Source: Balanoglossus misakiensis
Taxonomy: Eukaryota; Animalia; Hemichordata
Assembly (NCBI GenBank): GCA_040954595.2
Contig: CM082578.2
Location: 1,966,831-2,030,830 of the forward strand
Reading direction: 5' to 3'
DNA length: 64,000 bases
Part shown: in pieces, positions 1,310-57,209 of the stretch
Layout: each line of letters begins with the position of its first letter
Position numbering within the stretch: position 1 is the stretch's first letter
The notes under the pieces: generated by a model
The model's database searches: none
Told to the model about the DNA's origin: nothing
The model's input: the letters and a program-made list of their open reading frames with translations, nothing else
Translations under genes and position numbers: made by a program

Positions 1310-1688
1310 GTAATTATACTACGTATAAAGACTACGCATGTAAACTCGTCTTGGGCAGCTAATGGTTGCCACTCAGAATAAAAATAGCTAAAAGATACAA
1401 AAATGGACCTTTCAGACATTATGAAAAAAAGTCTTGTACATTGTTTGCAATTGCCAGCAACTGTCCAAATGCACACTATTTGGCTGAAATTCAGCAGAAG
1501 TGTACAAGTCATGGAGCCTTGGAAGCAAAGAAAAATACGCCTGTTTTTCAAAAATCAGTATCGTTTATGACATATAACATTACACCCTCAATTTTTGTGC
1601 ATAAATTATTTTTTATAGTTGTGTGATTCTGATTGAAACCAAGATTACATATTGATTGAATATATGTTAACATATGTTGTTGTTGCAG

Positions 1689-3225
1689 TCAGTAGAGATT
1701 GTGGTACCTTTGAGACTTTTGTAAATGCAACTTGTGAGAAGTACAGTGAGACACCAACTGATGGTACCTGTTCATTTGGAACATTCTACACAAGTATGGT
1801 TGCTGGTATGGCCAATTTTCAAGATTCACATGTAAGTATAGATAACGTTAGTTCTTGAAAGACTATGTACATGATTGGCTGTGATGTCAATACTGACCGG
1901 ATGGTCTGTCATTTCGAGTCATTGTGATTTGTAACAATTTTTGTTATGAATAATTTTATTTCATCTTGTTCGTTTTTGTGTGTTGCGCTGTTTTTTTTAA
2001 TTTTCTCAGCTAAGATTGATATAATCGCTTTGTATTTGAAGAAACCCTGCTGGCTTTAGTACTTCCAGTGTTGTCTAAAGAAGGAGATTTTGGTTTCTGT
2101 GATTGCAGGTTTGTCGGCAATGCCTGAACGTGATTGGTTCAAATGATGTATCTGTAGTTGTCCGGGTAACAGACATGTGCATGTACCCATACTGCATGAT
2201 TGATGAAGATGGTCTGGTTCTAAGTGAGGATGCTTACAACATCTTGTCAGATGGTGAAAGTCCTTCATCTCTTCTTGTATCCTACTCTGTTATTGCCTGT
2301 CCTGAAGATGTCTCCATCAAGTTCAAGGTTTGTGAAACAAAACAATTATTAACTAATTTATATACCCTTGTCTTTAATTGTCACATCTTGGCAAACTTGT
2401 TTGAAACCTCCCTAGCCATTTTTTTAAGTATTTGTAAGATTGAAGTTGAAATTGTCAAGAGTATTCATCTGTTTCTTTACTGGAAGTTTAGATCTCCTGG
2501 AAATCAAACCAGTCTCAACTGATTTGGACAAGGGAAATTCCAGTGGGGACTAGGTCATTGACAATGATTTGTTGCAAATACTGTAAAACGGGAAATTTTC
2601 ACGCCAGGAAATTTTCGCAATATCAAAAGAGGCAACTGTTACGCGAGGATTAATTTTGGCGTTCTTGTATTTCACTAACTGCATCGTTAAATCTGAAAAA
2701 CATTTCACACGACATTTATTTTCACGTCTCTTTTAGATCTTGCGTATTTTGCGAAAATTTATGCTCGCGAAAATAACCCATTTTACAGTAAGTCTTGCTC
2801 TAAATTTCAAAGTATTAGGACCAACCAGGGACTGTGTTGTTCATCTTTTTAGTGTACTGCATATTGATTGATTGATTTGTTTATTTAGTTTGCAGAGAGC
2901 ATTTCTGCATCATTCAGCTTATTAATATTGGATCATCGTTACCCTGTCACCACTGTGGAAGTCCACACAACTGGTCCCTGGATTACTCTAGACAGACTCA
3001 GTGATAACTTATTTGAACCACCCATTGGTTCTGGTGATATACAAGCCCCTCTAAATGTCAAGGTCTATTCGGTGTCTGGTAAAATTAACTACAGGGTTAC
3101 AGACTTTGAGTTTGATGAGATTATTGACACCTCCAAGCAATTTCGACATTGTGAGGATGATGAGCTTGAAGTTACTACACTTCCAGACTTTGGAATAGTT
3201 ACAACAATTGAGAGTACGCTTGAAG
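1689..3225 (+). CDS. Expansin-like (EXLX-type DPBB + CBM63) module, exons 1689-1831, 2109-2327, 2889-3225
   Basis: Spliced translation contains GTCSFG, CRQCLNVIG, VVVRVTDMC, GLVLSEDAY, VSYSVIACP, DHRYPVTTVEV, WITLDR..NLF, PLNVKV..VSG, TSKQF. These align motif by motif with bacterial/fungal expansins (recalled EXLX1: VYVTDL, ALDLSPNAF, NHKYPV, WINME..NHF, VQF). Confidence 0.85.
2579..2790. mobile_element. MITE family 1 copy inside expansin intron
   Basis: tactgtaaaacgggaaatttt...aaaataacccattttacagta. Confidence 0.8.
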
Positions 3226-3772
3226 GTAAGATGGTTTCATTTTATACAATATGTAATTATTTTACTGTATAACATAGGTCAATGTTGCTGATGATTTCAA
3301 TGGAGTGTAGCTGAATTTGTTACATTAGTTGTGATATCTGATATTGTGTTTTGCACACCAATATCTGGTACACTCTTATGCAAAATTTTCGCAAGAGGAA
3401 ATGTTCATGATATCAAATGTGGCAACTGTTACGTGGCGATTAATTTTCACGTTCTGGTATTTCACTGCATCGTTATCTCTGAAAACCATAAGCGACTTTT
3501 TTTTTCACCAGTAAATTTATCGTTCGTGAAAATTTCCTATTTTACTGTATTTTGAATAAGAAATCTCAACACCCTCATAAACAATTGCATTAAAGAAAGC
3601 AATAGAATAATAACACAATATCATTTGAATCACACACCGGGATGAGAATACCTTGAAATTGTCTCCTGCCAGGAACATTGATTCAATACTGTTCATGTTA
3701 GTGGAGAACAATATAACATTAGATTTCCTTGTTCTAGATTATTCAAATTGTAATGTTCATTTTTATCAACAG

Positions 3773-4989
3773 ATGAAACAACGCTGGAATATTTAACTAG
3801 TCCCTACACCGAAGGCACAGAAAAAAGCATCTCAACTGATGGACATGCCATAACTTCGCCCAGAATGACAACTGTGTTGGACACAGACAATATACCGGCT
3901 GTGACAACTGGAAAAAGCAAGTCAACCACAACAGTTACTATGGTTACAGTAACCATGCCTGTTGTCGTGACAACAGTAGAGGCAAGTTCTGAAAAGCCTG
4001 ATCAGCAGTCAAGCACAGAAGGTGAGGGTACATACAAGACAACATCTGCTCCGATCTCAAAAACAGAAATGATGTCAACAGCAGAATCTGTGGATATTAC
4101 TCCTGCAGACCAGACTTCAGAGTATGACGATGCAAGTGATGTGATGCCAACAGAGTCATGGACCACACCAGAGAAATTGTTGACAACAAACAAAATGGAC
4201 GCCACCACACCAGAGACACTTTTGACAACAAATAAAATGGACGGCACCACAGAATATTGGCAAACGGTAGAAGGCACCACAGAATGGCAAACACAAATGA
4301 TAACTGATGATACTGCCAATTCCCAAAGAAGAACAACAAGAAAACATACAACTGAGGCACCGACAGATCTGTTAACATCAAAAGGTGAATGTATACGAAT
4401 TTCTACACTTTTCAGCATTATGAGCTCCAAAGTAAGGATGGATCTTGTTTACTTAGTTGACACGACTCTAGCTCCTGGATGACACCATTATTTTTAGGGG
4501 GTGAGGGGTGGAAGAAAGGAGAAAACATATTCACTCCTCACTTTTTTTTCAAAGAAATGTAGGTTTACTTCCTATTATGATAAAGTAAACTATGAATAAT
4601 AAAACATTGAAAATTTGGCTTTATTGATAGAAACTTCATGTACGGGTACAGTGAAAATTTCAATTGAAAAAAAAAAATTCATAATACCTGCAATGTAAAC
4701 AGTCATACATTGTTAGTTACCATCATCATCGTTGTTTGAATCAGACTCTATGTCACAAATGAGGCAATAACAATGCTCAGTGCAATTGATCTGTATACAG
4801 TTGGTCAAATAACTCTTCCACTCTTATCATATAGACACCCATGTCCAGTGTGTAATATAAAGTATTCATTCAATTTCATTTATACAGTATAACATGATGT
4901 CAGTACTAAACCAACTACGAAACCAGCAACAACTCTGAAAGCCACAACAGGTGGTCTTACGACCCTACCAACTCCAACTCAACTACCAG
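3773..4989 (+). CDS. Mucin-like stalk exons 3773-4384 and 4888-4989 (second has premature TAA in copy A)
   Basis: Thr-rich ORF with internal repeat TTPE(K/T)LLTTNKMD. Phase-1 junctions. TA TAA CAT here versus TA TAT CAT in copy B. Confidence 0.8.
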
Positions 4990-5412
4990 GTAAGAGATAT
5001 TACCCTTAGTTTGGTTGATAACGTGTTGTATTTGAGTGATGTCTCAAAGTGTTAAAACAAAACATCCAGAAAACTTGTTTTTGGAAGTTAATTTAAATTG
5101 CTTGTCACATAATAGTTGTGTAAACAATGGTCACACCAAAATGTTCTCCTATATTTACTTTCAGAAAATATATACTTTTAGGGGATTCTCGATAATTAAC
5201 AGAACTTGATAATTAACAGAGAAATGTTTATTTCAAAAAGTGATTTTTTTTCTTGTATCTTTCATACACACCATGAAGTAATAATACAGTTAAATTTAAA
5301 ATCAGAATAAACCACAAAGAGTTGAACCCATTTATGCTTTGAACAAATTGACCTGAAGAGAATAGGAGTTGTATGGGTCTGTATTTACAATTAATTGATA
5401 ATTACTTTGCAG

Positions 5413-6415
5413 ACCGTGACGTTCCTGACTACTGTGCACAGCTTAGTGTGTCATATAATGGTAGTGGGCAGATTACAGACCAGCAATCCTGTGGCAACTA
5501 CTATGGTACAGAAATAACAACACAACTTGTTAATGGTTTAACTCAACTCCTGTCTCAAGATCCATCAGGAGCATGTGTTCCTCTTGCTGGTCTGGTTACA
5601 ATCAATATCGCATTATCCATAAGTCTCACCTCGCTATCGGATAATTCGGTGGGTACTCTAACTGTCTCTTTCAGTCTTGCAGAAAATCTTGTAGACTCTT
5701 TCTGGAGTCTAGAATATTACACTCAACAAATTGTTCACTTCATAGCATTTTATCTCACATGCTCTTCAGATTGCATATCCAAAGAAAAAATGCATATTGG
5801 GAGAATATTTTCATGCAAATGTGACAACCATGCGATGTTTAATTTTGTCGATACAATCGATCGTAAACTGCTAAGCTGAAACAGTGAGCAGTCATCTTTC
5901 TTTTTTGTTTACGTTCGTTGGAGTGGGGATGTCTTGAAACCGTCCGCATAACAGTACATACCTGTACACGGTGAGTTGGGGCGCCTTGAAACTTAAGGCG
6001 TATTTAACACGCGTTCCGTACGTACCGTTCCGTATGGCTTTTTAGTACACGCTAAATTCTATTGTTCTTGGTGCCAGATGCATAATAATAAAGCATATTA
6101 AACATAACATCTTTTAAAACAAATGCTTATGACTGTATTTTCATTACCTGCAGCTTTTAATGGATGTGGGGCTGAACTTACTGATTGAACCCATAGACCC
6201 ATTGAGCCCTGGATACGACAATGCAGAATTGTTGGGATGTGGTCTTCAACTAATCTTTTATCTGACCAACCATCCAAGTGTATTTCCAGTTTTGGTTGCC
6301 ATTGACAGTTCAGACAATTGTCCAGAACTGTCATCTTCTGCAAACCCAATTCAAGAAGATGATGCAACATTCTGTTGTCCTGAAGGATATGAGCTCTTCC
6401 AGAATGTCAGATGCA
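5413..6415 (+). CDS. Cys-containing SEA-like module 1, exons 5413-5648 and 6154-6415
   Basis: DRDVPDYC...CGNYY...CPELSS...FCCPEGYEL..RC is paralogous to the module at 8844-10165. The SEA fold is an inference. Confidence 0.65.
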
Positions 6416-6884
6416 GTATGTATAAAATCATTATTTTTATTCACACTAAAGTGGCGCTTATATCTCTTCTTTTCTTTTAAGGATGTATGCGCAGAACATA
6501 AACCGGAAAACTGCACGCACCCGTCTTTTTCCCATAGGATTACATTGATAATTGCTAGAAAACAAACTTCTTCTATTGTCATTGTCACAAAATTTTCTAC
6601 ATAGCTCAGTCCAGTAAATATAAATTCATTGGTCACTTAAAATATAAGGGTCACCTTGCTCTATTTTGAGATAAATTGCATTAAAAAAAAATTTGCCCAT
6701 AGACAAACCATTGGTGAAAAATGCTGAATCAGCAGTTTTCTGCTATTATCGACTAAATTCGTGACTCTGTAATGTGTATTTCATAAACAGGCACGGTCAT
6801 CAGGTAAATGCATGCTATGAGCGGTGTGTTACAAGCATGAATTAAGTATTACTTACAGAAAAAAAATTCTTCTTATTTCAACAG

Positions 6885-6983
6885 CAGCCGCAGTGGAAGT
6901 TGTGAGGAAAAGAAGGGATGCATCTGAACAGTCATCATTTCTCACTAATGCTAAATGGAATGGCACTGCACCTGTTTGTATTG
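6885..6983 (+). CDS. Furin-site exon and C-terminal strand of split Sushi domain
   Basis: TAAVEVVRKRRDASEQSSFLTNAKWNGTAPVCI has the W-x6-C Sushi terminus preceded by RKRR. Confidence 0.75.
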
Positions 6984-7662
6984 GTATGTTCATTAGGTCA
7001 AAATAAAAAAATATGTGCTGTTACCAATTACCCGACCTACCCTAATTATAACCCGCTGACCCTAAACATTTTAGAGCTTCCTAAACCGGAAGTATAAAAA
7101 ACAATGTCAAATATACAAAATTTATGAAAATTGCAAGAATCACGTAAGAATTATGGCGTTATTCTTATACACTACGGCGGCCAGAGTAATAAAAAAATGC
7201 AACATAAAAAAACATTCCCTACCTACCTACCCTATTTTTGAAAACCATGTAATCAGAACAGCACAATTTAGCAATTTATCCGCCAGATTGAGTTCTTGAA
7301 TGAAATCACCAATGTTGGAATTGGATTTTAATGTTTGTTTGTGTTTCATTCTAATTTGATTCTGATTGTGTTTCATTCTGATTTGATTTGATTTGATTTC
7401 ATGCATTGTCTGCCTGCTTTCATTTGTGGAAATCACAAAGCTTATAAATGGTCCATCATTGGAGTGGTTGTCAACATCACTGGGAAAAAGGACGATGTTC
7501 AACTGGTTTAGCAATTGGGGTTGTCATGGAGCCACCTACAGAACAGTTCTTCTCCCAGCTGAATTCAAGATTACTATGTCGCTTTAATGGCTGGCAAGTA
7601 TTGTGGTTACAAACTTGGCAGATTACAGTCTCATATCTTATGAAATATTTTTTGGCTTGCAG

Positions 7663-8377
7663 ATACCATGCCACCAACTTTAGACTGTCCAGACACGTAC
7701 GTAATTCTTGTTGATGAAGTGGAACACAATGTGTCATATCCAGCAGTCTCTGTTGTAGACAACCACGGAATCAGTGACGTCATATATGAACCACCAAATG
7801 GAACTGCAGTTGAAACCAGGAACTACCGGTACATCACAGTGACTGTTACTGCAACCGATTACAGTGGCAACCAGGCTCAGTGTCAATTTGATGTTTCTGT
7901 TCAACGTAAGTGTTCAGCTAAACTAGCCCACTAGTCGCTTGGTGAATTTTGAATCTCAATACTTTTGTGTGTTTGTGGTGATTTTTTGTCTTTATAATAC
8001 TTTTTGTGTGCATGCTGCTTTGAGCGTTTTTCTGGTACTGAGTTGAGTTTCGAAAATAATGCAAGAAGTGGTGGCAGAGACTTTAAACATTTAGAAGTTA
8101 ATATGGCATTGTTTTGAGACATTAGACATTTCACCTTTTAACATCTCATTTTGTTATTCAGCTGATACATGTCCAGAGTGGTCACTACCTACACCAGAAG
8201 GTGGACAGAAGACTTGCACCCGTGTCATGGGAGGACCACTGGGTTCAGGATTCTCATGTGCATTGTCCTGTCAAGCTGGTTATGATTTCATTCAAGAAAT
8301 TGATTCACCTGGAGGAATGTACACCTGCATAATTGGTGGAACATGGCTACCCCATAATTACGTACCTGATTGTGTTG
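7663..8377 (+). CDS. HYR domain (7663-7905) and Sushi-like domain (8162-8377)
   Basis: DTMPPTLDCP...VVDNHG...VTVTATDYSGNQAQCQFDVSV (HYR); CPEW...CQAGYDF...YTCIIGGTW...PDC. Confidence 0.85.
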
Positions 8378-8614
8378 GTGTGTATGGGCTTCTACTGATC
8401 TATTTTTGCGTAATTGAAATTCAACTGATATCATATCAATATTCATTAGGCCCCCAAAATAATATGTGAATGCTGATGCAGATAATAAACTTGAAGAACC
8501 AAAATAACCAACTAATTCAGTGTTACTGTTGGTTCAAATTTTCTCTGTATATTGTTGATATGTGAGGGAATTTGTGTTTTCAGTTTGCTATGTGTGCCCT
8601 TATATAAACTGATC

Positions 8615-8691
8615 ATTTTATAATCAGTCAATACCTACATTTTTATAATCAGTCAATACCTACATTTTTATAATCCGTCAATACCTACATT
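8615..8691. repeat. 25-bp x3 tandem repeat (copy at ~51995-52071)
   Basis: ttttataatc(a/c)gtcaatacctacat repeated three times. Confidence 0.85.
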
Positions 8692-8843
8692 ACCGCATGG
8701 AAGATGGCACTAGTCCAGATTTGAGTTGATTAGCAAAAATGGGATTTTTTCACCAGCTTAGTAAAGCGAAAACTGGATTGACGATTGACAATTCAAATAG
8801 TTGGCCTGAAGTTAAATTCTCTTCCATATTGATCTTTCCACAG

Positions 8844-10165
8844 AGAAGGAAGTTCCAGATTATTGCCTGACTGTGGGAGGTGTATACAACTCTGTGATAA
8901 CCATTCCAAGTGATACCAACCAATGTATCTCATATTACGAGTCGAGTCTGCTTGGAATTGTGCAGTCTGTTGAACCACTGTTGTCGGTCCTGTGTAACTC
9001 GATTGAAGACAGTGTTGAAGTTCAAAGTGACTATTCAACAATGGCCATAGTAGACTCCAATCAGGTATTATTATATGTCCTGCTGGAAAATTTTACAGTT
9101 TTATGATGAAGAAGAAGGTTGATGTAATCCTTTATTTGATTTCTGTCGTTACATTATTGTACAATGTGTTACCCTAAGGTTGGGTTCTCCAAGGTGTGTC
9201 ATTTTTAAGAAGCATTATCTTGTTATTGGAGGGACAAAGTCTCTCGCTCGCTGCCGTTTTCCCATTAATTATGTTTGGTACAAGACACAGTTTATGTTAT
9301 TCTACATGTGGATATATAGTGAATCATCATTTGACCACACACAACTTCCATCTTGTTTGTAGGATATGAGAGTAAAAACTCGCCCAAAATGAATGAATGG
9401 TATTCATTTTTCGCGTGTTTTTTCACTGTCGCGTCTACAAGAGGATAGAAGTTGTGTGTGGTCAAACATTGATTCTCTATATATCCACATGTAGAATAAC
9501 ATAAACAGTGTCTTGTAATTGTATCAAACATAATCCCTTTAAATGCTCCATAATAGCTTTATCTTTTTGCTACGTTTTCAGTGTGTTTGTTTTGTGTATC
9601 TACTGCAGTTTCTTGTTCAAATACCTGAAGAATCATAAAATGTTGAGCATTTGGCTTAATATCAACACAACATATATGTGAATGGTCAGCATTGTTATTG
9701 TGCAAAATTTAATTTCAGACTAGAATTCATTTGTCAACAATAACAATGGCTGTTACACGCATACATGATAAGTACTGGGTATAGTAACATGCTGTTTGGA
9801 GTAGAACAAGAAATAGCGTTTGATACACGGAAGAAAATACTGAAAAAAAGCCAAAAGTTACAGCTACTGTGTCCTTTTAATCCATTAAACCAAACTTTCT
9901 ATTTGGTGTTTTTCATACCGGTAGGTGAATGCAACAGTTGCCATGAAATTACTTGCAAAGACAGACAATGCAACAAGTTTAGATCTCCAAACCTGCGGTG
10001 ATAGTATAATGAGTGCAATTACAACTCAGTTCAGTCAATTCAACAGTCTCATCAAAATCGAGGCAAATGGTGCTTGTCCAGAATTGAATCTGTCAGGAGC
10101 CCCAACTAATGAGTTCTCAGGATGTTGCTGTCCATCTGGAAAGATTCTCAGTGACTGTTATTGTT
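8844..10165 (+). CDS. Cys-containing SEA-like module 2, exons 8844-9064 and 9925-10165
   Basis: EKEVPDYC...CISYY...CPELNL...CCCPSGKIL..YC. Phase 1-0-1 exon pair. Confidence 0.7.
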
Positions 10166-10421
10166 GTAAGTATCATCAATCCAATATACCTTGAACCAAG
10201 AGTCTAAGTTTATGGTGTCAATTACTTGTCAACTTATAAATATTTTCATCCCAACCCACTAGTGACTTATACTGGTGTACCATATGCTTCGACATATCTC
10301 CAAGGCTTACATGCATATACACCTTACACAACAGCTTATAAACAGCATCATTATCATCACAATTTATCCTGATATAATTGTTCATAGACAGTTGCTCCGA
10401 AAAAATGCATAATTTAATTAG

Positions 10422-10610
10422 TACAGTAAAACCTGTCTAAACTGAACCCTGTCGAATCTGGAAACCTGTCTAAACCAAACACATTGTCCTGTCTCTTCGA
10501 CATACATGTAGAACACCATGTTAAAAGAACGTCTATAAAACCAAACACCTCTGCAAACTGAACAGTTTCTTCAGTCCATTTGGTGTTCAGTTAAGACAAT
10601 TTTTACTGTA
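10422..10610. mobile_element. MITE family 2 (TA-flanked, TIR CAGTAAAACCTGTCTAAAC)
   Basis: tacagtaaaacctgtctaaact...agttaagacaatttttactgta. Relatives at 25337-25513, 27938-28119 and 29845 (partial). Confidence 0.75.
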
Positions 10611-10643
10611 CTGGTATATGTGTCACTTCTGTGCCTTGATGAG

Positions 10644-10889
10644 TTAAAGGGAAGAGGTTGTCCCACCGCGTGGGTGTCCTCCTTGATGAGAATATGTCCT
10701 CCAATACAAGCACAAACCCCACTGCAGTCATCAAGACGTACTAGGATCTTCAGTTTCTGTCATGCCCAGTCTATGCTGCGGTTGGCTGCTTTGTTATTCA
10801 TCCTAAGAATTATCTATTTTCAGAGATTTGTGGATGCATTATAATGTTTATAAACAAACAAATGCGTCGCGATGACCCCTTCACTTTAA
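10644..10889. mobile_element. MITE family 4 (TTAA target); reverse copy at 24091-24316, partial at ~35396-35485
   Basis: ttaa|agggaagagg...gaccccttcact|ttaa. Confidence 0.7.
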
Positions 10890-10922
10890 ACATCTTTGTC
10901 TTTTTAATCTGTTACATCGTAG

Positions 10923-12177
10923 TGACGTGTACAGCTGGAACTTATGATACAGGAGATGAATGTGCTAGCTGTCCTGTTGGATCTTATCAAAATTCCGCTG
11001 GTCAAACATCATGCATTACCTGTCCATCAGGTTATAGTACACACGATAAACACAGCAAGAGTCAAGATGACTGTATTGGTAAGAGAAATAGTCTATAACG
11101 AATACCACATCATCTCTGATGAGCTAGCACTGTGACTGACAGACTCGTTTATTTTATTCCACATACGGTTTTGGTAACACGTACAAACGAGATTTTAAAA
11201 AAAGCCATTACATGAATACTTTGAATTTTACAGATCGCACATCATGCAAACAAGGTGCTTCTGTTGGATGTAATTGTAAAAAACTGTGTTGCTATTGACT
11301 TCTCTAGATTTCAATCTTTTTATGACGTGATGATTCAAAACTAAATAGTACATGCAGTTTATGAATATATAGTGTTTAAGGTCAAATTGTGATCTTTTTT
11401 TAACTTTTAGAGTTGTGCAAACCTGGCTATTACTCAGATGATGGTAAAGCTCCATGTACACAATGTGTGCAAGGATCTTATCAACCAGATTATGGTTCTA
11501 CTGATTGTCATCTGTGCCCAAATGACACGTCAACACACGGGGTAGCAGTTGTAGTAGAGAGTTGCAAAGGTAGATTGCAAAGATTATTTTACAATGCCAA
11601 GTTTTTATTGGGCCAAAAAAATAGTATATGCTGTTCTGATTACATGGTTTTCAGAAATAGGGTAGGTAGGTAGGTAAGGATTTTTTTTTATTTTGCGATT
11701 TTTTTTAGCTCTCAATGTGCATTTCACATCAGAAAAAACTATAGTGTAGAAGAATGACATCATAGTCCTGCGTGATGTGCGCGATTTCGTCATAGTTCTC
11801 GCATGATTTGCGCAATTTTCATAAATTTTGTATGTTTGACAACAATGTTTTTTTTTACTTCTGGGTTTACGAAGCTCTAAAAAGTTTAGGGTCAGCAGGT
11901 TATAATTAGGGTAGGTCGGGTAATCGGAACAGCACATATTTTTTATTTTGGCCTCATTTCATCTTTTCCAGGATACAACATCATATTAAAATTTCAATTT
12001 GTATTTAACTTCCAGAAAAATGCACAGTTGGCTCATATTCCAACACTGGTCTTGAGCCATGTGTACTTTGTCCCCGTCACTATTACCAGAATGAGAGTGG
12101 TTCCAGAGAATGCAACCCATGTCCAACAGGACTGCGTACAACGCATGAAGGTGCCAATAGTTTGGATGACTGTATAG
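10923..12177 (+). CDS. Three GCC2/GCC3 (ephrin-receptor-like Cys-rich) repeats, exons 10923-11078, 11411-11569, 12016-12177
   Basis: CxxGxY...CxxCPxGxYQ...CxxCP...C pattern in each phase-1 exon. Confidence 0.88.
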
Positions 12178-12321
12178 GTAGGTACATTTGGCATAAAAAT
12201 TGAAGGGTTTACTTATATATTGATTACATATTCTTTTCCTATTTCTTGAGTTTCTTGCAAAAAAAAAACATATTGACCAAATTTGATCATTATGGTTTTA
12301 TGTTTACATCGTTTATTTCAG

Positions 12322-15300
12322 TTATTGATATATGCGAGTACATGTCGCCTTGTTTGAATGGTGGTACCTGTACCAACACTGCAGATGGTTATAGCTGTCA
12401 ATGCTCAGCACATTATATTGGGTAAGCAGTCGAATATGTTCTCTTGTTATGTTAAAGTGTTTTATCATACATGCAACACCTGTATTTAACACTTTCTATT
12501 GTTCTCGCCCCGAAGATATTATACGGTATTTCACAATGTGAAAATATCGCGTCCGCGTCTCGGCGCGACAGTTCGCTGCGCGCGCGAGCGACGCACGAGC
12601 CATAGGACTCTAGTGGAGAGGGGTGTTGTAAAATTCGGTTATTAGAAGCTGTAATAAAGTTTTCAAAGCTGGCGGTTTTGTCATGTTTAGTTCTCCGAAA
12701 TTCTCAATGCAAAATAATTGTTAACATGATATTTTGAAAGAGAACGTAGACAATTTTATTTAGAATGCGGATGTGCCCATCGTAATGAAAGCTGCCAACC
12801 CCCTTAAAATGATACTACGGCCCACACATCATACGTCACAACATGGCTACTGCCGTGATCCCAGCGCCCGGTTCAAATTTGAAATTGTTTTTCTCGGCGC
12901 ATTTTCGCAAATCGTACTGTTTTATAGGTAGGCATGTATGATAAAGGGGTTATTACACGAATTTTGGTCGATAACGCGACGCATTCTCGTGATGTCCGTA
13001 TTTTGACTCGTTGCGCAGCGAATCTCGTCAAAATACGGACAATCACTCGAATACGACAGATATACCTAATATATATGCACCAGTATCGGCGCATTTTCGC
13101 AAATCGTACTGTTTTATAGGTAGGCATGTATGATAAAGGGGTTATTACACGAATTTTGGTCGATAACGCGACGCATTCTCGTGATGTCCATATTTTGACT
13201 CGTTGCGCAGCGCAACTCGTCAAAATACGGACAATCACCCGAATACGACGCGTTATCGACCAAAATTCGTGTAATAAACCCTAATTATTTGCGCAAGTGT
13301 GCACATACATTGTACAGATATACCTAATATATATGCACCAGTATTTATTTAAGCAATAAAACACCCCCAGCCATGGTATACCACGAGATTTTGACCAGTT
13401 CACGACATATACGCACGAGCGATAGCGAGTGCGTATATGGAGTTGAACTGGTCAAAATCGAGTGGTATAACATGGCTGGGGGTGTTTTATTGCTATTATA
13501 TTATGCCAGTATATTGAAACTTTGCATAAAACATTTTAAAAAGGCATTTTCTTTGACTATGATATATGACTGTGGTATATGGCTAATATATCACGGTCAC
13601 ATGTCGTGACTCGACCAATCAAATAGCTTGATTTACACCATCAATATACTGGTATAATATAATTCCTTATAACAAACCTGAAAGATCCATAAAGGTTTGT
13701 AATGTTCAGCTTATGAGGAGTATGCTCAAAATCAGAGGAATTGAAAACATATATCCCAAATTGAACAGACATATAGTCATTTGCCAGTGGCATCACAGAG
13801 ATGCATCTGATCATAACTTAGTGAAATTAGATGCCATTGTCTCATAATTATACATTTGTATTACTACCTTCATGACTACATGTTTACGAAAACACATGGA
13901 AAGGTGTAGTACCTTTGTTCTAAGGACCACTTTCATTAAGTCATTACTGGTAATTGTACATACAAATCTCCTGAAGAACACTATCCATGGTAACATCTAT
14001 GTGTTGATTAAGAATCAATTTAAGTGAAGTTAAAACACATTGGGCTGTTCTAAAACTTCAGATTTCTTCCATTATGCAGGAGTAAGACTTGCAAGTTGCA
14101 GTGTTGTATAAAAACAATTAATCTGTAGTTCTGAAATAGTGAAGGCAGGTATTTTGGAATTGTTTTACTTTGTGCATATTTTATGGAAACTCTTTGTTTT
14201 CTTATAGAAATCAATGTGAAATCCCTGCACTGTGCAGCAGTGAGCCATGTCAGAATGGTGGCTTGTGTGAAGAATTCAACACAACAGACATACAGTATGC
14301 AACCTACAGCTGTCTGTGTCTAGATGGATACTCAGGTGATCTTTGCCAGATTGATGTGGATGAGTGTGCTTCTGATCCGTGCCAAAATGGAGCCACCTGT
14401 ATTGACCTCATTGCTGATTATAACTGTACATGTGCACCTGGATATGAAGGGGGAGACTGCTCATTGGATGTCAATGAATGTGCAGATGACCCTTGTGACT
14501 TGGTTGGAACCATGCAATGTCAGAATTTGATCAACGACTTTGCTTGCCAGTGTAAAGCCGGATATACAGGAGAGCTGTGTGAAGAAAATATAGGTAATTC
14601 TTCGCAAACTTTTGTTTGAATCAAGTGTTGATCTAGGAAATTCTTGAAAGTCCCAGACTTTGGAAAATGGGAATGTTAAATACGCTGGAATAGAAAATCT
14701 TTTAGTCTTCTCCAAAATGTCATGTACGTAATTTTATCTGACAAATAGAACTTAGTACAGTACAGTATAAACAACTGGTATTATATCCACCTTATTCTTA
14801 AATCTTTCTTCATAATCTCATAAAATCTAAAATTTTAATTTTTATCACAGATGACTGTCAACCAAATCCTTGTCACAATGGTGCAACGTGTCTAGATCGT
14901 GTGAACTCCTGGAGATGTGAATGTGTGGAAGGATTCCGAGGATCGATGTGTCAACATAACATAGATGATTGCCAGGACGTTCTCTGCCAAAATGGTGGAA
15001 CGTGCCAAGATGAGGTCAATGGATTCACATGTGCATGTGTTTATGGCTGGACTGGTGAGTCTGTTGAATGTTTGTTGTCGTACGTACGAAAGTACATGTT
15101 TCAATTTAAAGGGACATTACCTATAACTTTTGGCTTTATTTCCAGTATTTTTGTTCTGTGTACCAAATGTTATGTAATTTTGTACACTGAACAAAACAGC
15201 ATGCTATATATGCCCAGTACTCTACTTGTCACCATAGTATGTATGTGCATAACAGTCACTGTTTATTGTTGACAAATGAATGCTGGTCGGGACTTAAATT

Positions 15301-17498
15301 CAAATTTTGCATAGTAATAATGGTGACTTATATACACATATATGTTTTGGTGATAAACTAGATGCTAGGCATTTCCTTATGTGTTAAGTATTCAAACAAA
15401 AACCTGCAGTAAATACACAAAACAAAAATATTGAAAACATACCAAAAAGTTACAGCTAATGGAGCTTTAAAATTAATAGAAAGTGATGTGCAATTTGTAT
15501 TGGCAGAACATTTATATACTGTAAAACGGGTTATTTTCGCGAGCAATACATTTTTCGCAAAATATGCAAGAGCCGAAAAAACGTGAAAATAAAAAGTTGC
15601 GTAATTGTTTTTTTTTCGGAGATAACGATGAAGTGAAATACTAGACCATGAAAAGTAATCCTCACAGTTGCTTCTTTTGATATCGCGAAAATTTCCTGTC
15701 ATGAAAATAACCCATTTTACAGTATTTAGATTCATATATTTTAAATCCCTGCATGATAATTACTTGATCACAATTCTCTTACACGGTAAGGTTTTTCAAT
15801 AGTAATGTCATCTGGCATTTTATGTCCTGAATGTAACATACCGCTAAAACAAAATTTAATTTCTTGCGTTATTATTTTTGTAGGCTACCTTTGTCAAAAC
15901 CAGACAGAACCGTGCATGCCAAACCCATGTCATAATGAAGGCGTGTGTGAAGTCCTTGTTGAAACTGAAGCATACATGTGTCATTGTTTGCCAGGATATA
16001 CTGGGCAAAACTGTCAGGTTGGTCTTTTAACTTAACATATTCACATGTTGTGATTAAGCAATTACTCCAATTATTATGGAAAAGTGAATTTTCCTTTGCA
16101 GACCAGACCCAGAGATGCTTAACTGCAACTTCTAAATTGCAACAAACCCAGTAGTTTTCTCGTACATTTAAGAGCTGTGGGGTACTATCCATTACCATGA
16201 CAACACTGTGATACAAAATACTAGTAAACTTTAAAATGGTCATAACCTTGTTAGTTTTGTGGATAGTGTTTGAATGAAATTAAGTGTTATCTGCTGTGGA
16301 AAAAATTCTAAAACCTGATCAGTAGTAAACATAAAGATATCTGCCCATTAAAATTTTATAAATTTATACTATAACATGTCTAATAAATTCATGTATTTTC
16401 AGGATGAAATCAACGAATGCGAGTCCAATCCTTGTGTCAATGGTGGTACTTGTAATGATTTAGTGAATGCATATGAATGCAGTTGTGTTGACGGTTTTAC
16501 CGGTCTTCGCTGCGAGCAAAACATCAATGAATGTGCTCCTGATCCATGTCAGAATAGTGGCAACTGCACTGACCTCATCAATGATTACATTTGCGAGTGA
16601 GTATACATTTTTTTTTAAATCGGTACATATTGATTTCATTCATTAGTTTTGAAAACTTGTTTTGCCAGATGTGTAGTTGGGTATGGTGGTAAGAACTGTG
16701 ATGAGGATATTGATGACTGCATTGGTGACCCGTGCCAGAATGAAGCCGAATGTATTGATGGACTGAACACGTACACTTGTAATTGTCAACCAGGTAACTA
16801 ACAGATTTGGAAGATTAAATTTGAAGATTACTGATGTACCATACAAACAGACCCTTCCGGGAATTGTATTTTTTGTCCAATACCGAAGTCATAAACCCCC
16901 AAAAGTGTGCATTTTCTTAAAAACAAGATATAGTGGAACCTGATCGGATAGCACACTACAATCATTTATGCTGTGTAATGCTCAAAAATTGGCAGCTGTA
17001 GAGGTATAAATTTAGAATGGATCCAGGAAGTGTTGTGTCAACCAAAGGCTGTATGTCGTATGTTGTATGTCTATCATAAGAACCAGGAGAGGGCTGAGAA
17101 TATTAATTTTGTGGTGGATGCTTTTATATCATAATCATTCTATTTAGATTGCATCACGAATCAAGCCCAGAAATGTTTGCTGCTGTTTCCCTTTTTCATA
17201 AATTTGTTTGGCATAATCCTTTGTTTCTTCACATTAACAGGGTTTGAAGGAGACTTCTGTGAACATAATATCAATGAATGTGACGAGTACCCCTGTGAGA
17301 ATAATTCAACATGTTACGACACTTTAGGCAGTTATTATTGTTTGTGTGCTAATGGATTTGAAGGCAGCCACTGTGGGACCAACATTGATGATTGCCATGG
17401 TAACATGACATGTCAAAATGGTGCCACTTGTCACGATGGAATAATGGAATTCACATGTGAATGCCCTCCGAGGTTCGAAGGGACACTTTGTGATAGAG
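12322..17498 (+). CDS. Array of 12 Notch-type (mostly Ca-binding) EGF repeats; exons 12322-12421, 14208-14593, 14851-15054, 15884-16017, 16403-16596, 16669-16793, 17241-17498
   Basis: Repeated D/N-I-D/N-E/D-C..PCxNGxTC...YxCxC..GF/YxGxxC. All junction phases are compatible. Confidence 0.9.
12894..13500. repeat. Cluster of CpG-rich hairpin (palindromic) non-autonomous elements, with a ~190-bp tandem duplication
   Basis: 12894-13085 is repeated from 13086. Near-perfect palindromes are centred on gcgcagcg and gagcgatagcgag. Confidence 0.7.
15517..15724. mobile_element. MITE family 1 copy (reverse orientation)
   Basis: tactgtaaaacgggttatttt...aaaataacccattttacagta. Confidence 0.8.
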
Positions 17499-18424
17499 GT
17501 AACTGTGTGCTGACCATTTGTGATCCTATTCTTGGTTTCTTTAGTAATGTTTACTGTAAAATGGGAAATTTTTGCCGCAAACTACGCGAGAGCCAAAATA
17601 ACATGCAAATAAAACGTTGCGTAAAAAAAATTTCGGAGATAACAATGCAGTGAAATACACGAACACGAAACTTAATCGTTGTGTAACAGTTGCCCCTTTT
17701 GATATCGCGAAAATTCCCTGTCGCGAAAATTTCCCATTTTCCAGTATTTATTTCCATGCTGTACCATGCATATTACTTTTTACAGCCTGAATTTCATTTA
17801 CCTGTATTCTTCTTTCTCAGAAATCTGTCGATCAATTTACCAATCATTGAATGTATTATATAAATAAGCAAGCAGGCTTGCTGCACAATCAGATGTATAG
17901 AGGCTTGGATCTTTCATTACATTTGCTGGTTCTTTGCTGTTCTGTTCTCGGATGTGCGCCTCACTACATGTACATCTGAATCTACTCCATTGAAAATGTT
18001 GAATGTGTTTTTTCAAAAGTAACCAATCTAAAAGCAGCTAACTTAACGCTTTTTGCTATGTGTTCTGACAGGTGCATTATGTCTTCTGTAACGAGTGCTT
18101 AGATTGGCTTGAGAAAGCACATGATTTTCTATGTGCATATGAGGAGAATATTTGAGAATAGGAAAGCAAAGAACTAGCGAATGTAAATATCAATCAAACA
18201 CTACACCAGTTAGCCAGCAAGCCATCCAGGAAACAAACTCATATGTTAGTATTTTCATTTTAGCTTGAAGTACAGTTTTATAGAACTGATAATATTCTAT
18301 AGATGAAAGTACATAGTACAGTAACATACCATTCCAGTACAAACAAGTAATAATAAGCTGCACATGTTTTGGTTGTAAAGCTTAGTCTAATGTTCTGTTA
18401 TGTTTGCTTTTATATTTCTAACAG

Positions 18425-19957
18425 AAAAGTCATCCAATTATGATCTCTTCTTCAATGGAGCTGACTCAATGGTTGTCTCACCAACATTTAATTGCAGTCA
18501 AGACTTCAGTGTATCACTGTGGGTCAGATATAGCACCACTGATAAATCAACACCAGGTGTCTATCTTACCATAGCATTGCAAGGATCAAGGTACTCTTTA
18601 TGTTATTCTTTCTAGTCTGCAACCAATCTGATTAAAATCAGAAGCCCCCGTTCAACCTCCCGTTGTGGCCAGGCCAATCAGTACAGTTGAAAGTTCCTGC
18701 ACTAAAAAAATAAATATTACAATGAAATGAAATATAATGTCTCGGGAGTTCATTTACTTCCATGTGTTCTAGTGGATGAGATAATGCTTTGTTTAGGAAT
18801 TTCAAAGTGGGAAATGCAACGTTTTCTCATTGTATTTTGCATTTTCTCACAGTGGTGACCATATTCCTTTGCGGCGAAGATTTATTATTTGTCTGGTTTA
18901 AACTTGCATATGCACTTATACTTAGGGTTCATACTACTTGTGCATAGTTCAGTGCATACTTCTGTATGGGCTAAAGGTGGTGCAGTTTGAAAAAAGTGTG
19001 ATAATTTCCCAAAAGTAACAGCTGATGCACCGATTTATGTCTAATCTCTGTTTTGAATTTCTTGGCAGCTTAACCCAAGTTGATAGTACCCTTCCTTGTC
19101 CTGGACAGAAGTCTATCTGTCAGTACAAATGGTGTAACCGTATCAGTTGATGACAACTCGTGGCATAATGTTGTCATGGTAATTGAAGAAGGCATTGTGG
19201 CAGTTTACTTGAATGGTGTTGCAGTAACATCACCCCTTCCATCCTGGACAGGTATCGCTGACTCAGAAAAGTAAGTTGCTCGTGGAACTCCGAACATTTT
19301 TAACTCCTACAAAGCCATAGAAAATTGTCATCATCACATGTTAAAATTCTATATTTTCCTATACTGTCAAGTTTTCCCAAGCCTCAAGAGAAGTGAACCA
19401 TTTATTTGTGAAGCAGTTATCTTGTTTATAACTTATCTGCTAGGTAGCTTGTCTTACTCCTACATGACAATACAATATCATCATAACATGTTGCGACTTA
19501 CAACAAAACTGGCCAAAAAAATCAAGGGAGCAAACTATGGACATCAGCAAAGCTATCTTCGTGGCACTTTCAAATTCAAACTTATGCGGAACGATACTGA
19601 TTTTCACAGTTTATTTTTGACAACTTCTTACCAGCACTTTTAATGAATTCATTATTCTCTTGTTTTTCAACAGCTGTATGGTAATTCTTGGTCAAAGCTA
19701 TGACGAAAATGGACTCCTTGACAACTATTTTAGCTTCCATGGTGATGTTACACAGATGAATGTATACGATTATGTATTGACTCCTGTTGAAATCCAGAGT
19801 CTGGCTTTGAACTGTTCACAAAGTCCACTTGGCAATCATGTCATGTGGGTTGAAATGGATCAAGAGTTATTGGGTAGTGTGGTCAAAATCCAGCCATCAG
19901 CTTGTGGAAGTACCAGGTGCCCAATTGGTTACTCTGGTTCACCATGCACACCTGTTG
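18425..19957 (+). CDS. Pentraxin/LamG-like domain, exons 18425-18590, ~19069-19270, 19674-19957
   Basis: FSVSLWVR, DNSWHNVVM...VYLNG, VILGQ...SFHGDVTQMNVYDYVLT..EIQSLALNC. The frame at the 19069 acceptor does not join cleanly (possible frameshift). Confidence 0.8.
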
Positions 19958-20296
19958 GTAAATAGCCTTATTCATTACTATCAAACAATTTTATGCATAA
20001 TCTGACGAGGAGAAATTGGGTCATATTCACAGAAATGATTAATCCTAAATCCTTACTTTAACACAGCTCTCCTTGTAATGTTGTGTCTGTCCAGGGAAAA
20101 CTGTGTGAAATTTTGAGTAGTTTTTCCTGTGTACATTCACCAGCCCCTAGCTGCTGTGTGTTGTACTCCAATCACACAGCCTGCAATCTCCCTACTTTAG
20201 GAAGTATAGGGAATCATCATCTGCCCATGCCTGTATCGCTCACTCTTTTTGTTTCTACCGTACATGTATTTAACACTGAATGTAATGATACTATTC

Positions 20297-20395
20297 ACAA
20301 CCACCACCACCACCATCATCATCATAATCATCATCACCACCACCACCACCACCATCATCATCATCATCGTCATCATCATCACCATCATCATCATC
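20297..20395. repeat. (CAC/CAT)n trinucleotide microsatellite (copy at 53088-53192)
   Basis: Intronic; lengths differ between copies. Confidence 0.9.
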
Positions 20396-20695
20396 AGTTT
20401 CTGCTGTTCCAAGAACTAGGCTTATCATGAGTGTAATTGATCATATCATTTATTATGCCTATGGATACCATCTCATGACTCCTGTCCTATCTTGTAGTGT
20501 TTCTTGACAGTGATCTAGTCTATTCACATGTATCAGAAAACAAGCACTTAACAATATCTGGATTTCTCATGAATATGTGACAGATATTAACATCTAGTAG
20601 TGCATTTACCTAAATGTACCAGTTTATGCATAGGGGGTGTGGACCAGTTGTTTAATTTACAAACATTTGTTATTCTTTCACTTTTTTTTCTTCAG

Positions 20696-21635
20696 ATAAA
20701 CACGCTCCTGAAGTCATTTACTGTCCCAATACGACCCGTATAATTAGTCCTAATAGCTTGACAACAGGAGTATGGCAGGAGCCTATATTTACAGATGATG
20801 TCGCCATTGCCAATGTGACACAAACCTACACAATGGGTAAGTTTCCTATAAAATATCATTTCTGATTATAGATAATATATAACATTCACACTAACTAAGT
20901 TTTTTTTATCGGGGTGGGGTGGGGAGTTGATCTAAACAGAAACCAACAAGCTGAGACAACTTTCCTAAGATTATGGTCAGTATGAAGCATACTGGTACAG
21001 TTTATTCTTGTGGCCGTTACTCATATATGGCTAGCACATCCTATGTGCGACAGATGATCTTGCTTCCAAGTATTAAAGCCTCAATTGCTGATACTATTAC
21101 CATATGTTTATAGGCCCTTTCCTCGATCCCAGGGCAGTACAATGAAGTTAAAACTCGAAAGCATTTGTGTTTGCACGTAATTGTTTATTGGAAACAAAAG
21201 ATTTGACCAACTGTTGAGCAAGGCCTTTAATCAGTAAAGTACTTAATATTCTCCACTACTACTGGGGATACCCATACCACAAATGTTGTGTTCTCTTACA
21301 ATGGGCAGTTGAATAAACGTGTGCGGCACCATATCTGTTTAGTATACATATCTTGTTCATGTTTATATGTACAGTCACAATCAGGAGTTGATAATATGCC
21401 TGTGTATACCCACCAGATAGCTCACTTAAATGGACCATTCTAAGTTTGAAAAGAAAATCATGAAAAACATTCAAGAAACGGAAGCTATTTTGGCTTTAGC
21501 ACCCATGCCTGTAATGATGTGCATAATTTTGTTCTTACAGGTGACACCTTTTCCTGGGGAACCTACCAGATCGCTATGTTGCTTCAGATACAGCTGGCAA
21601 CAATGCACAGTGCAACTTTTTACTCTATGTACTGC
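20696..21635 (+). CDS. HYR domain 2, exons 20696-20836 and 21541-21635 (frameshifted in copy A)
   Basis: DKHAPEVIYCP...WQEPIFTDD...GDTFSWGTYQI-SYVASDTAGNNAQCNF. One A is missing relative to copy B (54370). Confidence 0.85.
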
Positions 21636-28819: not shown

Positions 28820-28924
28820 GTGACTTTCGTTGCTCCAATGGTAATTGTATAAATCCTGACTGGGTTTGTGATGGTACAGTGGACTGTGGTGATGGTGATT
28901 TCTCTGATGAGATTGGATGTGCAG
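28820..28924 (+). CDS. LDL-receptor class A repeat exon (first Cys missing)
   Basis: [34 protein letters not shown]; ttcag| and G|gtatgt. Not in the ORF track. Confidence 0.9.
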
Positions 28925-29709
28925 GTATGTTTTTGGCAAGTGGTCTGAAACAATCATCTCTACGCTCTCCTCAACATCATTGCAAAGTGGGCCCAGGTGA
29001 TGAGACCAAGTTTCCTAAATGTGTGGTATAGTGTACTTTTGGCTTGAAGTCATCATGCAAATGAATCTTGTAAATATGCGTGACAACTCTTATGTGCCAA
29101 CCTCAAACTACTAGACCGTAATTTATTTGTATGATCATCTCCTTTGCAACTACAGACTACTTTTGAACTGTCAGCAGAAAGTCTGATCCTCAAAGAATTT
29201 CGTACTGTAAAACAGGAAATTTTCGCGAGCGATAAATATTTCGCGAACTATGCGAGAGCCATAAAACACGAAAATAAAAAAGTTGTGTAAAAATGTTTTT
29301 CGAAGATAACAATGCCGTGAAATATGAGAATGCGAAAATCAATCATCGCATAAAAGTTATCACTTTTGATATCACGAAAAATTTCCTGTTTTACAGTATG
29401 TCATAATTATAAATCAGAAACAAAACTGGGTCAAGTATTTTAAGAATCTGGCATCTGTCACGCTGATAGAGTGAGCTTAGAGAATAATAATATGCTGTTC
29501 TTGGAATTTTCGGGTGTGATAAATGTCGTTTCAAAATTTTTACATTTGATTTATACTAATATAAAATTGGTTTTATACATGTACAATGGATACTCACTGT
29601 TGGTGAAGTAATTTTATCATCAATGAAATTTCTTCAACTTGAAGAGCAGAAGCTTTATGACCATTCATCACACAAATAAACCCTTTCTTTTTATTTTGAT
29701 GATGTTCAG

Positions 29710-35306: not shown

Positions 35307-36338
35307 GTATACATAACTTACTAACATTTCAGAAAAGGATGTTACAGAATTCTTAGAAACACGCACTCCCTTTATTCCTTATGATTTAGAGTCATTAAGT
35401 GAAAGGTGGAAAGATTTTTGAATATGCTTCGTTCATTCTAAGAATGATCTAATTTCAGGGACTTGTGGATGAATTGTAATGTTTATAATCTTTACGGCCC
35501 TGATACGGGTTTTGTGGCCCGAGGTCGTACGGCGGAAGCGCCCGACCGCAGGGAGGGCGGGAATCGACGTACGACCGATGGCCGCAAAACCCGTATCAGG
35601 GCCGTAAAGGTTTTATCATATGCCTTATTGAACGATAATCTACAAGAAACTAATAAAATACACATTCTGTAATATTTTGGAATGTAAATATTATGTGTTT
35701 ATTATGTAAATATTATCTATCGTTTTGGAATGATCTATCCCGTAGCATAGAGGCGCATTCCTCCAGTTCTTGCGGATTGATATGCACGATGTCATTTGTT
35801 TATATTCTATTGCACGTGAGATATAGACGCGCTCGAACTCACAGAGCCGAGCGCGAGCAAAACATTATTTTTTCTTTGCGACGATCGACGCCGACAGTCA
35901 CACATTAATCAAATCAAATCATCAATTTGACTATTCATATTTCCAAATAATGCTCTACAACATGCAGCGATTACGGAAGATGATGGGATTCGGTAGCGGC
36001 ATAGGACATACACACACTGCAAGTGCACTAGTCACTGACACCGCACCAGAAAAATTTAATTCCGAACGTAGCAATGACAACTTTCGAATCTCGCGCAATA
36101 AACACAAAACTAGATCCGGATATTGAACGCGTCTTCCAAATATGGTCACCGGGCCGGGGCGTGATAAGCAAAAAAACTGCAGGGATGTGAGGGCGCTTTT
36201 CCCCATAGACTTTACGTGGGCACGTGAATATAGGCATATGATAATAAACATACAAATGCGGCACGACGACCCCTCACATTTATGAGTCAAAGTATTTGTC
36301 TGCATGCATTCTTATCATTGTGATCCTTGTTCTGACAG

Positions 36339-38857: not shown

Positions 38858-38900
38858 GTAAGTTCACATCATGATTGGTCTTCATGTGGTTGTCTGCTTA

Positions 38901-40446: not shown

Positions 40447-40471
40447 GTAAGTATCATGTTAAACTATAGAG

Positions 40472-57169: not shown

Positions 57170-57209
57170 GTGAGAAAAAATGATTTGGTATCAGTAAAGA
57201 AATACTGTA

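Follow-up and report, generated by a model that had tools for sequence, protein, structure and literature searches.

Microbial expansins of the EXLX type, exemplified by Bacillus subtilis EXLX1 (BsEXLX1, also YoaJ), carry a DPBB domain (D1) followed by a CBM63-like domain (D2). According to the accessible sections of PMC5072189, D82 of BsEXLX1, hydrogen-bonded to T12, is required for creep, the mutants D82A and D82N are inactive, and W125, W126 and Y157 are its cellulose contacts. The fusions covered by the available text of one survey join expansins to GH5, CBM1, CBM2 or CBM32, with no EGF, mucin or transmembrane partner; that text also describes metazoan expansin genes as few and unconfirmed against contamination, and reports expansin-like genes in bivalves and Oikopleura (10.1101/637728). 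An "Expansin-YoaJ" with a chitin-binding domain appears for Exaiptasia in the accessible part of PMC6626399, and a yoaJ is listed for Spongilla in that of PMC10176882. The second system of interest is the membrane protein Uninflatable (Uif) of Drosophila, whose domain composition we take from excerpts of PMC3340373. Here we describe a locus in 64,000 nucleotides of the acorn worm Balanoglossus misakiensis (assembly GCA_040954595.2, contig CM082578.2, positions 1,966,831 to 2,030,830, forward strand; hereafter the window), in which an EXLX expansin is, we are confident, genuinely fused into a Uif-type membrane protein.

The expansin cassette comprises three forward-strand exons, at 1689–1831, 2109–2327 and 2889–3225, with AG/GT ends throughout and 232 open codons. 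Exon phases run 1 to 0, 0 to 0 and 0 to 1; the cassette is symmetrical (phase-1/phase-1) and in phase with the Ser/Thr-rich mucin exons on either side. Exon 1 encodes the start of D1 and is 61% identical to residues 1613–1664 of Ptychodera flava XP_070567428.1; by itself it matched no family in Pfam or NCBIfam scans. Exon 2 supplies the remainder of D1 and the linker, with an Asp at what we take to be the D71-equivalent position and Val at D82. Its sole family match in NCBIfam is to positions 40–109 of NF041144 (expansin_EXLX1; E 4.6e-5), Pfam adds DPBB_1 under the gathering score (E 0.0025), and no PDB sequence was matched. Exon 3 encodes D2, a CBM63-like fold without the aromatic triad, after which a Thr-rich stalk begins; it matches positions 119–193 of NF041144 and no other NCBIfam family (E 5.6e-6), and nothing in Pfam. 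Its five matches among PDB sequences are led by three bacterial expansins (YoaJ, E 0.009), and Atlas placed it with Expansin_C at 0.87, a value that Atlas itself rates as a lead only. The NF041144 matches of exons 2 and 3 are collinear, each single exon scoring 22.8–30 bits, under the curated cut-off of 100 bits. Against a profile built only from six domains of free hemichordate expansins, the spliced module scores 125.8 bits, compared with 10.0 for the best of 1000 shuffles. D1 lies directly before D2, which rules out a reversed-order, nematode-type expansin. Wider searches with exon 3 gave 0 of 406 candidates among proteins of 197–2000 aa, no relatives among 598 stretches of metagenome contigs, and only six chance ABC-transporter matches (E ~9) among plasmids. 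The alignment of free expansins drew a single locus from metagenome contigs, at 38% identity, which did not enter the analysis.

The original prediction, made from the letters of the window, had proposed three GT-AG exons carrying an ordered series of motifs and amounting to a two-domain EXLX expansin. The splice ends and open codons bear out the exons, and all motifs occur in order, two of them with one spacer residue more than had been written. The two-domain identity is upheld by the collinear matches of exons 2 and 3, which hit expansin_EXLX1 and no other family, and by the Ptychodera fold model described below. The same prediction had placed the cassette in frame with mucin through transmembrane exons; it is in phase with the flanking mucins, but lesions and a duplication breakpoint precede any anchor exon.

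The fusion is conserved in two further acorn-worm lineages, which strengthens this reading. A HMMER search of 1.84 billion representative proteins with exon 3 returned five proteins, the best being Saccoglossus kowalevskii XP_077862127.1 (E 2e-67, three stretches); the others were three further hemichordate expansin proteins and one Flavobacterium repeat protein lacking an EXLX match. XP_077862127.1 is a RefSeq model of 4825 aa that begins with a signal peptide, C-type lectin, LDLa, three CUB, Sushi, EGF and Sushi, continues with three mucin-flanked expansin modules, and closes with HYR, Ephrin_rec_like, EGF, LamG, a transmembrane segment and an NPMY tail. Summed over its modules, the NF041144 score is 221.7 bits, and the window exons match this protein in order from LDLa to tail. 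A search with its C-terminal half found P. flava XP_070567427-9.1, three isoforms, all full length, with two modules (131.3 bits on NF041144, likewise summed). The window module is 61–62% identical to the first Ptychodera module, and identity across all matches is 64.5% to Ptychodera and 52.4% to Saccoglossus. Compared with Ptychodera domain by domain, the module stands at 61%, the neighboring CUB, Sushi, HYR and Ephrin domains at 66–76% and the mucin exons at 28–30%. A continuous reading frame from expansin to anchor is shown in the two database orthologs only; in both, the giant surface protein that had been proposed as the host is intact, a type I membrane protein of the Uif family that carries the modules on mucin stalks. 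The Saccoglossus and Ptychodera lineages split at least 370 million years ago, according to the accessible text of PMC4729200. From the best 120 of 228 long-protein matches, 119 were scanned, including the Ptychodera ortholog and an older Saccoglossus model; the 117 other giant proteins among them (2650–8400 aa, arthropod and mollusc Uif-types included) contain no expansin module, and NCBIfam gave no EXLX match in ten controls, namely the older Saccoglossus model and nine other giant proteins. The searches run retrieved no full-length ortholog from echinoderms, amphioxus or Glandiceps, which does not settle the state of those animals.

The embedded modules are predicted to keep the two-domain expansin fold. 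An AlphaFold model of the Ptychodera module, built on a 24-row, mostly bacterial alignment, reached pLDDT 81.6 and pTM 0.80. Expansin-family structures rank first, as the predicted likeness to EXLX1 would have it: all top 12 Foldseek matches belong to the family (best E 6.2e-13, TM 0.79), and VIA gave Z 18.4–20.2 for five expansins and 11.8 for the next structure. The best VIA match, the Clavibacter expansin, takes in D1 as well as D2, with Z 20.2 and an rmsd of 3.0 across 194 residues. A model of window exon 3 reached pLDDT 73.4 and found Phl p 2 and expansins only at E 0.01–0.02.

What the modules have lost is the set of residues tied to cellulose. We aligned the seven embedded modules (two of them window near-copies) with eight free hemichordate domains and 43 microbial domains, the latter from 33 loci (of 35 tried, two were dropped for internal stops; L006 and L009 had been excluded beforehand) and ten proteins, mostly metagenomic; YoaJ numbering came from the exon 3 PDB-sequence alignment. 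D82 occurs in none of the embedded modules, in two of the eight free domains and in all 43 microbial ones. Aromatic residues at W125 and at W126 show the same pattern (each 0/7, 5/8 and 43/43), as does Y157 (0/7, 4/8 and 40/43); T12, where the alignment is less certain, is present in 0/7, 7/8 and 43/43. The presumed D71-equivalent Asp is retained in 7/7, 7/8 and 42/43. Every embedded module has Val or Ala at the D82 position, where Clavibacter D78 aligns to Val, and six of seven have Glu at the T12 position. The replacements themselves are conserved: across six compared modules, Glu at T12 and Val at D82 each recur in five, and several replacements are common to five or six, the invariant residues being mostly cysteines and core positions. 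The modules hold only 1–3 Trp and are net acidic (D+E 23–29, K+R 8–14). Because D82 and W125/W126/Y157 are gone in 7/7, cellulose loosening or binding is unlikely; judged by alignment, the embedded modules are very probably not canonical cellulose binders or looseners, and we reject that role for them. The earlier proposal that the module could sense or tether microbial or algal walls is likewise not supported, as far as an expansin-like mode is meant, the known cellulose-binding and loosening residues being replaced in all seven. Since 61% identity to Ptychodera is kept and the replacements are shared, the module appears to be under constraint for something besides known cellulose chemistry.

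The position of the insertion exposes a variable-cassette slot within a split Sushi domain of Uif-family proteins. The cassette begins after the third Sushi cysteine and ends 1500–1800 residues on at a dibasic site, which is followed by a W-x-x-T-x-P-x-C Sushi end and then the first HYR. Rejoining the two ends raised the local Sushi profile score in five of six proteins (the window, from 18.1 to 27.6 bits, both orthologs and two gastropods), a gain that is partly by construction, the C-terminal ends having been picked by their W..P.C pattern. In three gastropod relatives the same Sushi is uninterrupted; at the same point lie a second F5/8C in an arthropod Uif-type protein, and mucin and unnamed domains in Gigantopelta and Aplysia. 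Complex prediction for the two Ptychodera Sushi halves scored 0.45 (best control 0.00), with runs agreeing on at least 86% of contacts and a partner pLDDT of 76. Of 78 solved pairs 51 attained the mark, as did 2 of 108 mismatched ones; passes at or below 0.60 comprise five of the 78 solved pairs and all four mismatches that passed. Two parts of one known domain may, moreover, pass on likeness. The prediction lends weak support to the pairing of the Ptychodera halves. The insert-bearing proteins of hemichordates, molluscs and a crinoid form one group (SH-aLRT 96) in a quick tree of 23 of 24 proteins, a tree that does not have Drosophila Uif itself among its rows and does not show one-to-one orthology. 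Two related receptors have unrelated repeats ahead of that Sushi-end motif: in Ptychodera XP_070544274.1 (P0033) these are long, belong to no identified family and occupy residues 370–1340, and in XP_033113942.1 (P0021) from the crinoid Anneissia they are short and acidic and occupy residues 200–790.

In a tree of 58 rows, unrooted, with long-branch warnings and without fungal, amoebozoan, algal or other-animal expansins, the seven embedded modules cluster together (98/92) within the hemichordate expansins. Their sister is XP_006812521.1, a degenerate, stalked double expansin of Saccoglossus (97/89, long branches), and the 15 hemichordate domains stand apart from the 43 microbial ones (100/92) and are not nested among them. 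On such a tree the ancient acquisition put forward in the original prediction is a conjecture. Ptychodera has two modules, Saccoglossus three and the window gene at least two; Saccoglossus modules 2 and 3 pair, and the window repeats all resemble Ptychodera module 1. We infer that copy number arose separately in each lineage and that the direct source was a resident hemichordate expansin gene. Such a free gene would have been shuffled in as a phase-1 cassette before the Saccoglossus/Ptychodera split and then duplicated along each line. XP_006812521.1 (P0007) has two degenerate expansin domains, a Thr-rich stalk and a hydrophobic segment near residue 612; it is probably a second type of membrane-tethered expansin and may be related to the donor gene. 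In Saccoglossus and Glandiceps the free double expansins (P0009, P0137) have a hydrophobic C-terminal tail that may be a GPI-anchor signal. A profile search for further animal expansins returned 14 proteins, four hemichordate and ten microbial or metagenomic; that it recovered no sponge, cnidarian or mollusc expansins reflects a limit of the word index, not absence.

In the window itself the receptor gene occurs twice, 1675–9616 corresponding to 45149–52996 (97–99%) and 20204–23458 to 52995–56409, all on the forward strand. Copy 1 starts outside the window, holds at least two expansin repeats and ends near 23458 at the duplication breakpoint, before the membrane-anchor exon. The upstream repeat is represented by the 3' end of its exon 3 (1–178), 95% identical to 3048–3246, with four amino-acid-changing and two silent codon differences in 59 codons. 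Mucin-like exons, both phase 1-1 and open, stand before the complete module (698–1309, AG/GT ends, 41% Ser+Thr) and after it (3773–4384, 35% Ser+Thr). A small mucin exon (4888–4989) has an in-frame TAA at 4890–4892, TAT in copy 2; at 102 nt it is symmetrical and skippable. Next come a Cys-bounded domain (5413–6415) in two exons (5413–5648 and 6154–6415), 66% identical to P. flava and without a Pfam match, which we presume to be SEA-like, and an exon (6885–6983) that joins an RKRR furin-type site to the W-x-x-T-x-P-x-C end of the split Sushi. The remainder of copy 1 (7663–21635) encodes, by Pfam, HYR, Sushi-like, an unnamed domain, three Ephrin_rec_like, an EGF array, pentraxin/LamG, EGF and HYR, collinear with Saccoglossus residues 2999–4201. 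It has a frameshift near 19090 in the LamG exon, which an acceptor at 19109 would avoid, and another near 21572, a one-base deletion.

Copy 2 spans LDLa at 28820 to the tail at 63600. Its 5' part (28820–43199) contains LDLa, three CUB, four Sushi, two EGF, three Sushi and, at 43020–43199, the opening portion of the split Sushi, with an in-frame TAG at 30583–30585 in CUB1. Its expansin module (45163–45305, 45573–45791 and 46353–46689) is open and its protein 95% identical to that of copy 1; exon 2 matches NF041144 at E 2.8e-7, and the spliced module scores 130.6 bits on the free-hemichordate profile. In the middle part, mucin to HYR (47237–56409), a splice donor is lost at 51351, and a 10.6-kb deletion near 52996 removes the Ephrin/EGF/LamG exons and results in a phase mismatch. 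The single-copy 3' exons (56969–63600) encode Sushi-like, an unnamed domain, four Ephrin_rec_like, two EGF, a transmembrane exon (62896–62992) and the NPMY tail; they are open to the stop and collinear with Saccoglossus residues 4197–4790, and the anchor exon belongs behind this second, also broken copy. One open frame to a membrane anchor within the window is therefore rejected, both copies being lesioned. No C-type lectin or signal-peptide exon was detected in the window, where the best non-overlapping matches start at Saccoglossus residue 192; the orthologs have both. Between the copies, intron 1 of the module is 86% identical over aligned bases and introns 2 and 3 more than 99%, and the single module of copy 2 is probably a recombinant of two repeats.

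The segment 23459–56409 represents either a tandem duplication, about 33 kb long, or a haplotype that was duplicated falsely; its breakpoints fall within a neighboring CRAL-TRIO gene and in a HYR intron. The 3' exons of that CRAL_TRIO_2 gene, presumably GDAP2-like, lie between the receptor copies at 24590–27210, apparently without the 5' part. A DDE_1 transposase fragment (57184–58400, minus strand; E 0.0014, under the gathering score) sits in an intron of the single-copy 3' part. The Cys-bounded domain of about 150–165 aa occurs three times (5413–6415, 8844–10165 and 58639–59608), with no Pfam match in five scanned exons and two occurrences adjoining dibasic sites; it is also present in both orthologs and apparently repeated in the mollusc relatives. 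There is a tandem 192-bp repeat at 12894–13494, and palindromic MITE-like intronic repeats of several families, in many copies, occur around 9230–9540.

We envision that the two or three EXLX modules in the mucin stalk of this giant Uif-family receptor were repurposed for binding without catalysis and would anchor the receptor to a ligand other than cellulose, one belonging to the mucus or apical coat of the animal itself. A repurposed binding role is likely because the cellulose residues were lost while the modules stay conserved. That the expansin fold was domesticated as a receptor ligand-binding domain in a hot-swappable slot, its face rebuilt for a non-cellulose ligand, we propose tentatively and at somewhat less than even chances; that the ligand would belong to the animal's own coat, rather than being microbial or there being only a spacer, is by analogy an even call. 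The stalks would be O-glycosylated, furin would cut after the cassette, and the Sushi C2–C4 disulfide would retain the N-terminal half, leaving the modules to hang as a side arm; for the cut and the tether we rely on consensus motifs and Sushi connectivity. A different ligand is conceivable, in that the modules might be pattern-recognition or feeding tethers for a wall polymer other than crystalline cellulose (peptidoglycan, chitin or beta-glucan), bound in a D1 groove that has been remodelled. In favor of this, the modules retain the disulfide frame and the D71-equivalent Asp. In the accessible parts of the respective sources, BsEXLX1 binds peptidoglycan avidly (PMC5072189), the F5/8C that fills the slot in the arthropod Uif-type protein is putatively carbohydrate-binding (PMC3340373), and acorn worms are muco-ciliary feeders (PMC4729200). 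However, D2 has no aromatic platform, the modules are Trp-poor and acidic, and free paralogs with canonical residues, such as Glandiceps domain 2, exist for that job; we consider such a tether doubtful. If instead the modules were ligand-free, compact, disulfide-locked spacers that stiffen or punctuate a long mucin stalk, the disappearance of all known functional residues, the mainly cysteine and core invariance, a copy number that varies by lineage (2, 3, at least 2) and the unrelated repeats that occupy the slot in related proteins would fit; yet identity to Ptychodera is near the CUB and Sushi level, and the substitutions on what was once the binding face are shared between lineages, and we judge a pure spacer unlikely. 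Continued polysaccharide loosening through an alternative acidic residue, on epidermis or gut and acting on food walls or the animal's own matrix, can draw on the full predicted two-domain fold, the kept Asp, the Glu at the T12 position in 6/7 and a mention of an expansin with Leu at position 82 in the accessible text of PMC5072189; it is very improbable given that D82A and D82N inactivate BsEXLX1 (PMC5072189, same sections) and that W125, W126 and Y157 are gone from D2 in every module. Scarcely credible, finally, is an annotation or assembly artefact in which a nested free expansin gene or contamination was merged into a Uif-like model. The window locus is indeed duplicated and lesioned, and the cassette is missing from the older Saccoglossus model; but the modules have spliceosomal introns and the GC content of the host, the window cassette, flanked on both sides by phase-1 introns, lacks a stop as well as a signal-peptide exon, and the position is identical in three genomes, with three full-length Ptychodera isoforms. 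Contamination in particular is ruled out by the introns, the host GC content and the orthologs.

Several observations weigh against the domesticated, own-coat binding module that we prefer. Both window copies are lesioned, and the gene may be decaying or the assembly wrong. Over exons of equal length, 9 silent and 24 amino-acid-changing codon differences separate the copies, the stop being one of the 24, which is no departure from neutral; outside the expansin exons there are 2 silent and 14 amino-acid-changing ones, likewise consistent with an absence of selection (p 0.20). That the cassette is spliced into mRNA is argued from splice phases and RefSeq models, and an older Saccoglossus model of 3097 aa from the same locus skips residues 1270–2965, all three modules included; that model is either a short isoform or incomplete. 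The window exon 3 model has no structural match at E 0.001 or better, and the mostly bacterial alignment behind the Ptychodera model biases it toward an expansin fold. As to the slot, the rejoined Sushi of the arthropod protein showed no gain (11.4 to 11.7 bits), and elsewhere the gain is in part built in. The uncertain T12 alignment, the Asp kept in 7/7, with which some residual groove function is conceivable, and the natural Leu-82 expansin bear on the claim of lost chemistry, and the own-coat ligand itself is proposed from analogy to Uif and from the mucin context.

The original prediction knew of no description of such a fusion, and we found none in the literature searched, most subscription papers lying outside its coverage. 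Nothing was found that pairs expansin with uninflatable, or with sushi, EGF, mucin and invertebrate together; where expansin co-occurs with Saccoglossus or hemichordat, the expansin passages in the available text are unrelated (10.1101/229468, PMC6878697). The accessible text parts of PMC4729200 and two of its spreadsheets do not mention expansin, and those of PMC12867482 hold nothing relevant. Apparently new is the embedded fusion; free hemichordate expansins are already known and named in databases. That intron-split modules sit at one receptor position in three acorn-worm genomes argues strongly for hemichordate expansins being genuine animal genes. The embedded modules and their free paralogs are natural counterparts, D82 and the triad being absent from the former and present in the latter, which makes an expansin fold minus its cellulose chemistry testable. 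If the proposal is true, this would be the first expansin-fold module shown working in animal cell-surface recognition.

Among animal expansins, those listed for Exaiptasia, Spongilla, bivalves and Oikopleura, which we compared by description only, are in the available texts not described within a membrane receptor; in the Exaiptasia entry an animal-type domain already accompanies the expansin. Closest in the tree, and sharing extra cysteines with the embedded modules, are the free hemichordate expansins APU50764.1 (already deposited as "expansin-yoaj protein-like protein 170"), XP_006812919.2, XP_070533744.1, XP_077978908.1 and XP_006812521.1; these are tandem doubles of 430–670 aa, 24–31% identical to the window module, and several keep D82 or the aromatic triad. 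With Drosophila Uif and Uif-type proteins the hemichordate receptors share the order C-type lectin, LDLa, three CUB, Sushi, EGF, HYR, Ephrin_rec_like, LamG and transmembrane segment. They differ in lacking F5/8C (PF00754 is absent from P0004 and P0013 and occurs twice in the arthropod-type P0061), the position of the second F5/8C being taken by mucin, expansin and an unnamed domain; they group with the insert-bearing proteins of molluscs and a crinoid, and the arthropod clade is separate under an unresolved node. Whereas the fusion partners in the available survey text are carbohydrate-active microbial domains (10.1101/637728), the acorn-worm partner is an animal adhesion-type receptor. The modules have the same DPBB and CBM63-like order as the microbial EXLX structures (B. 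subtilis EXLX1/YoaJ 2bh0 and 3d30, Clavibacter 4jcw, Talaromyces 7wvr), the two orthologs score above the NF041144 cut-off when their modules are summed, and the predicted fold matches at TM 0.70–0.79; unlike them, the acorn-worm modules are split by introns, lie inside an animal membrane protein of 4500–4800 aa and lack T12, D82, W125, W126 and Y157. Taken together, this is a conserved, apparently undescribed architecture that joins two known kinds of protein, with the expansin fold predicted to be kept and the residues for cellulose loosening and binding replaced, and on present evidence the embedded modules would work unlike a canonical expansin.

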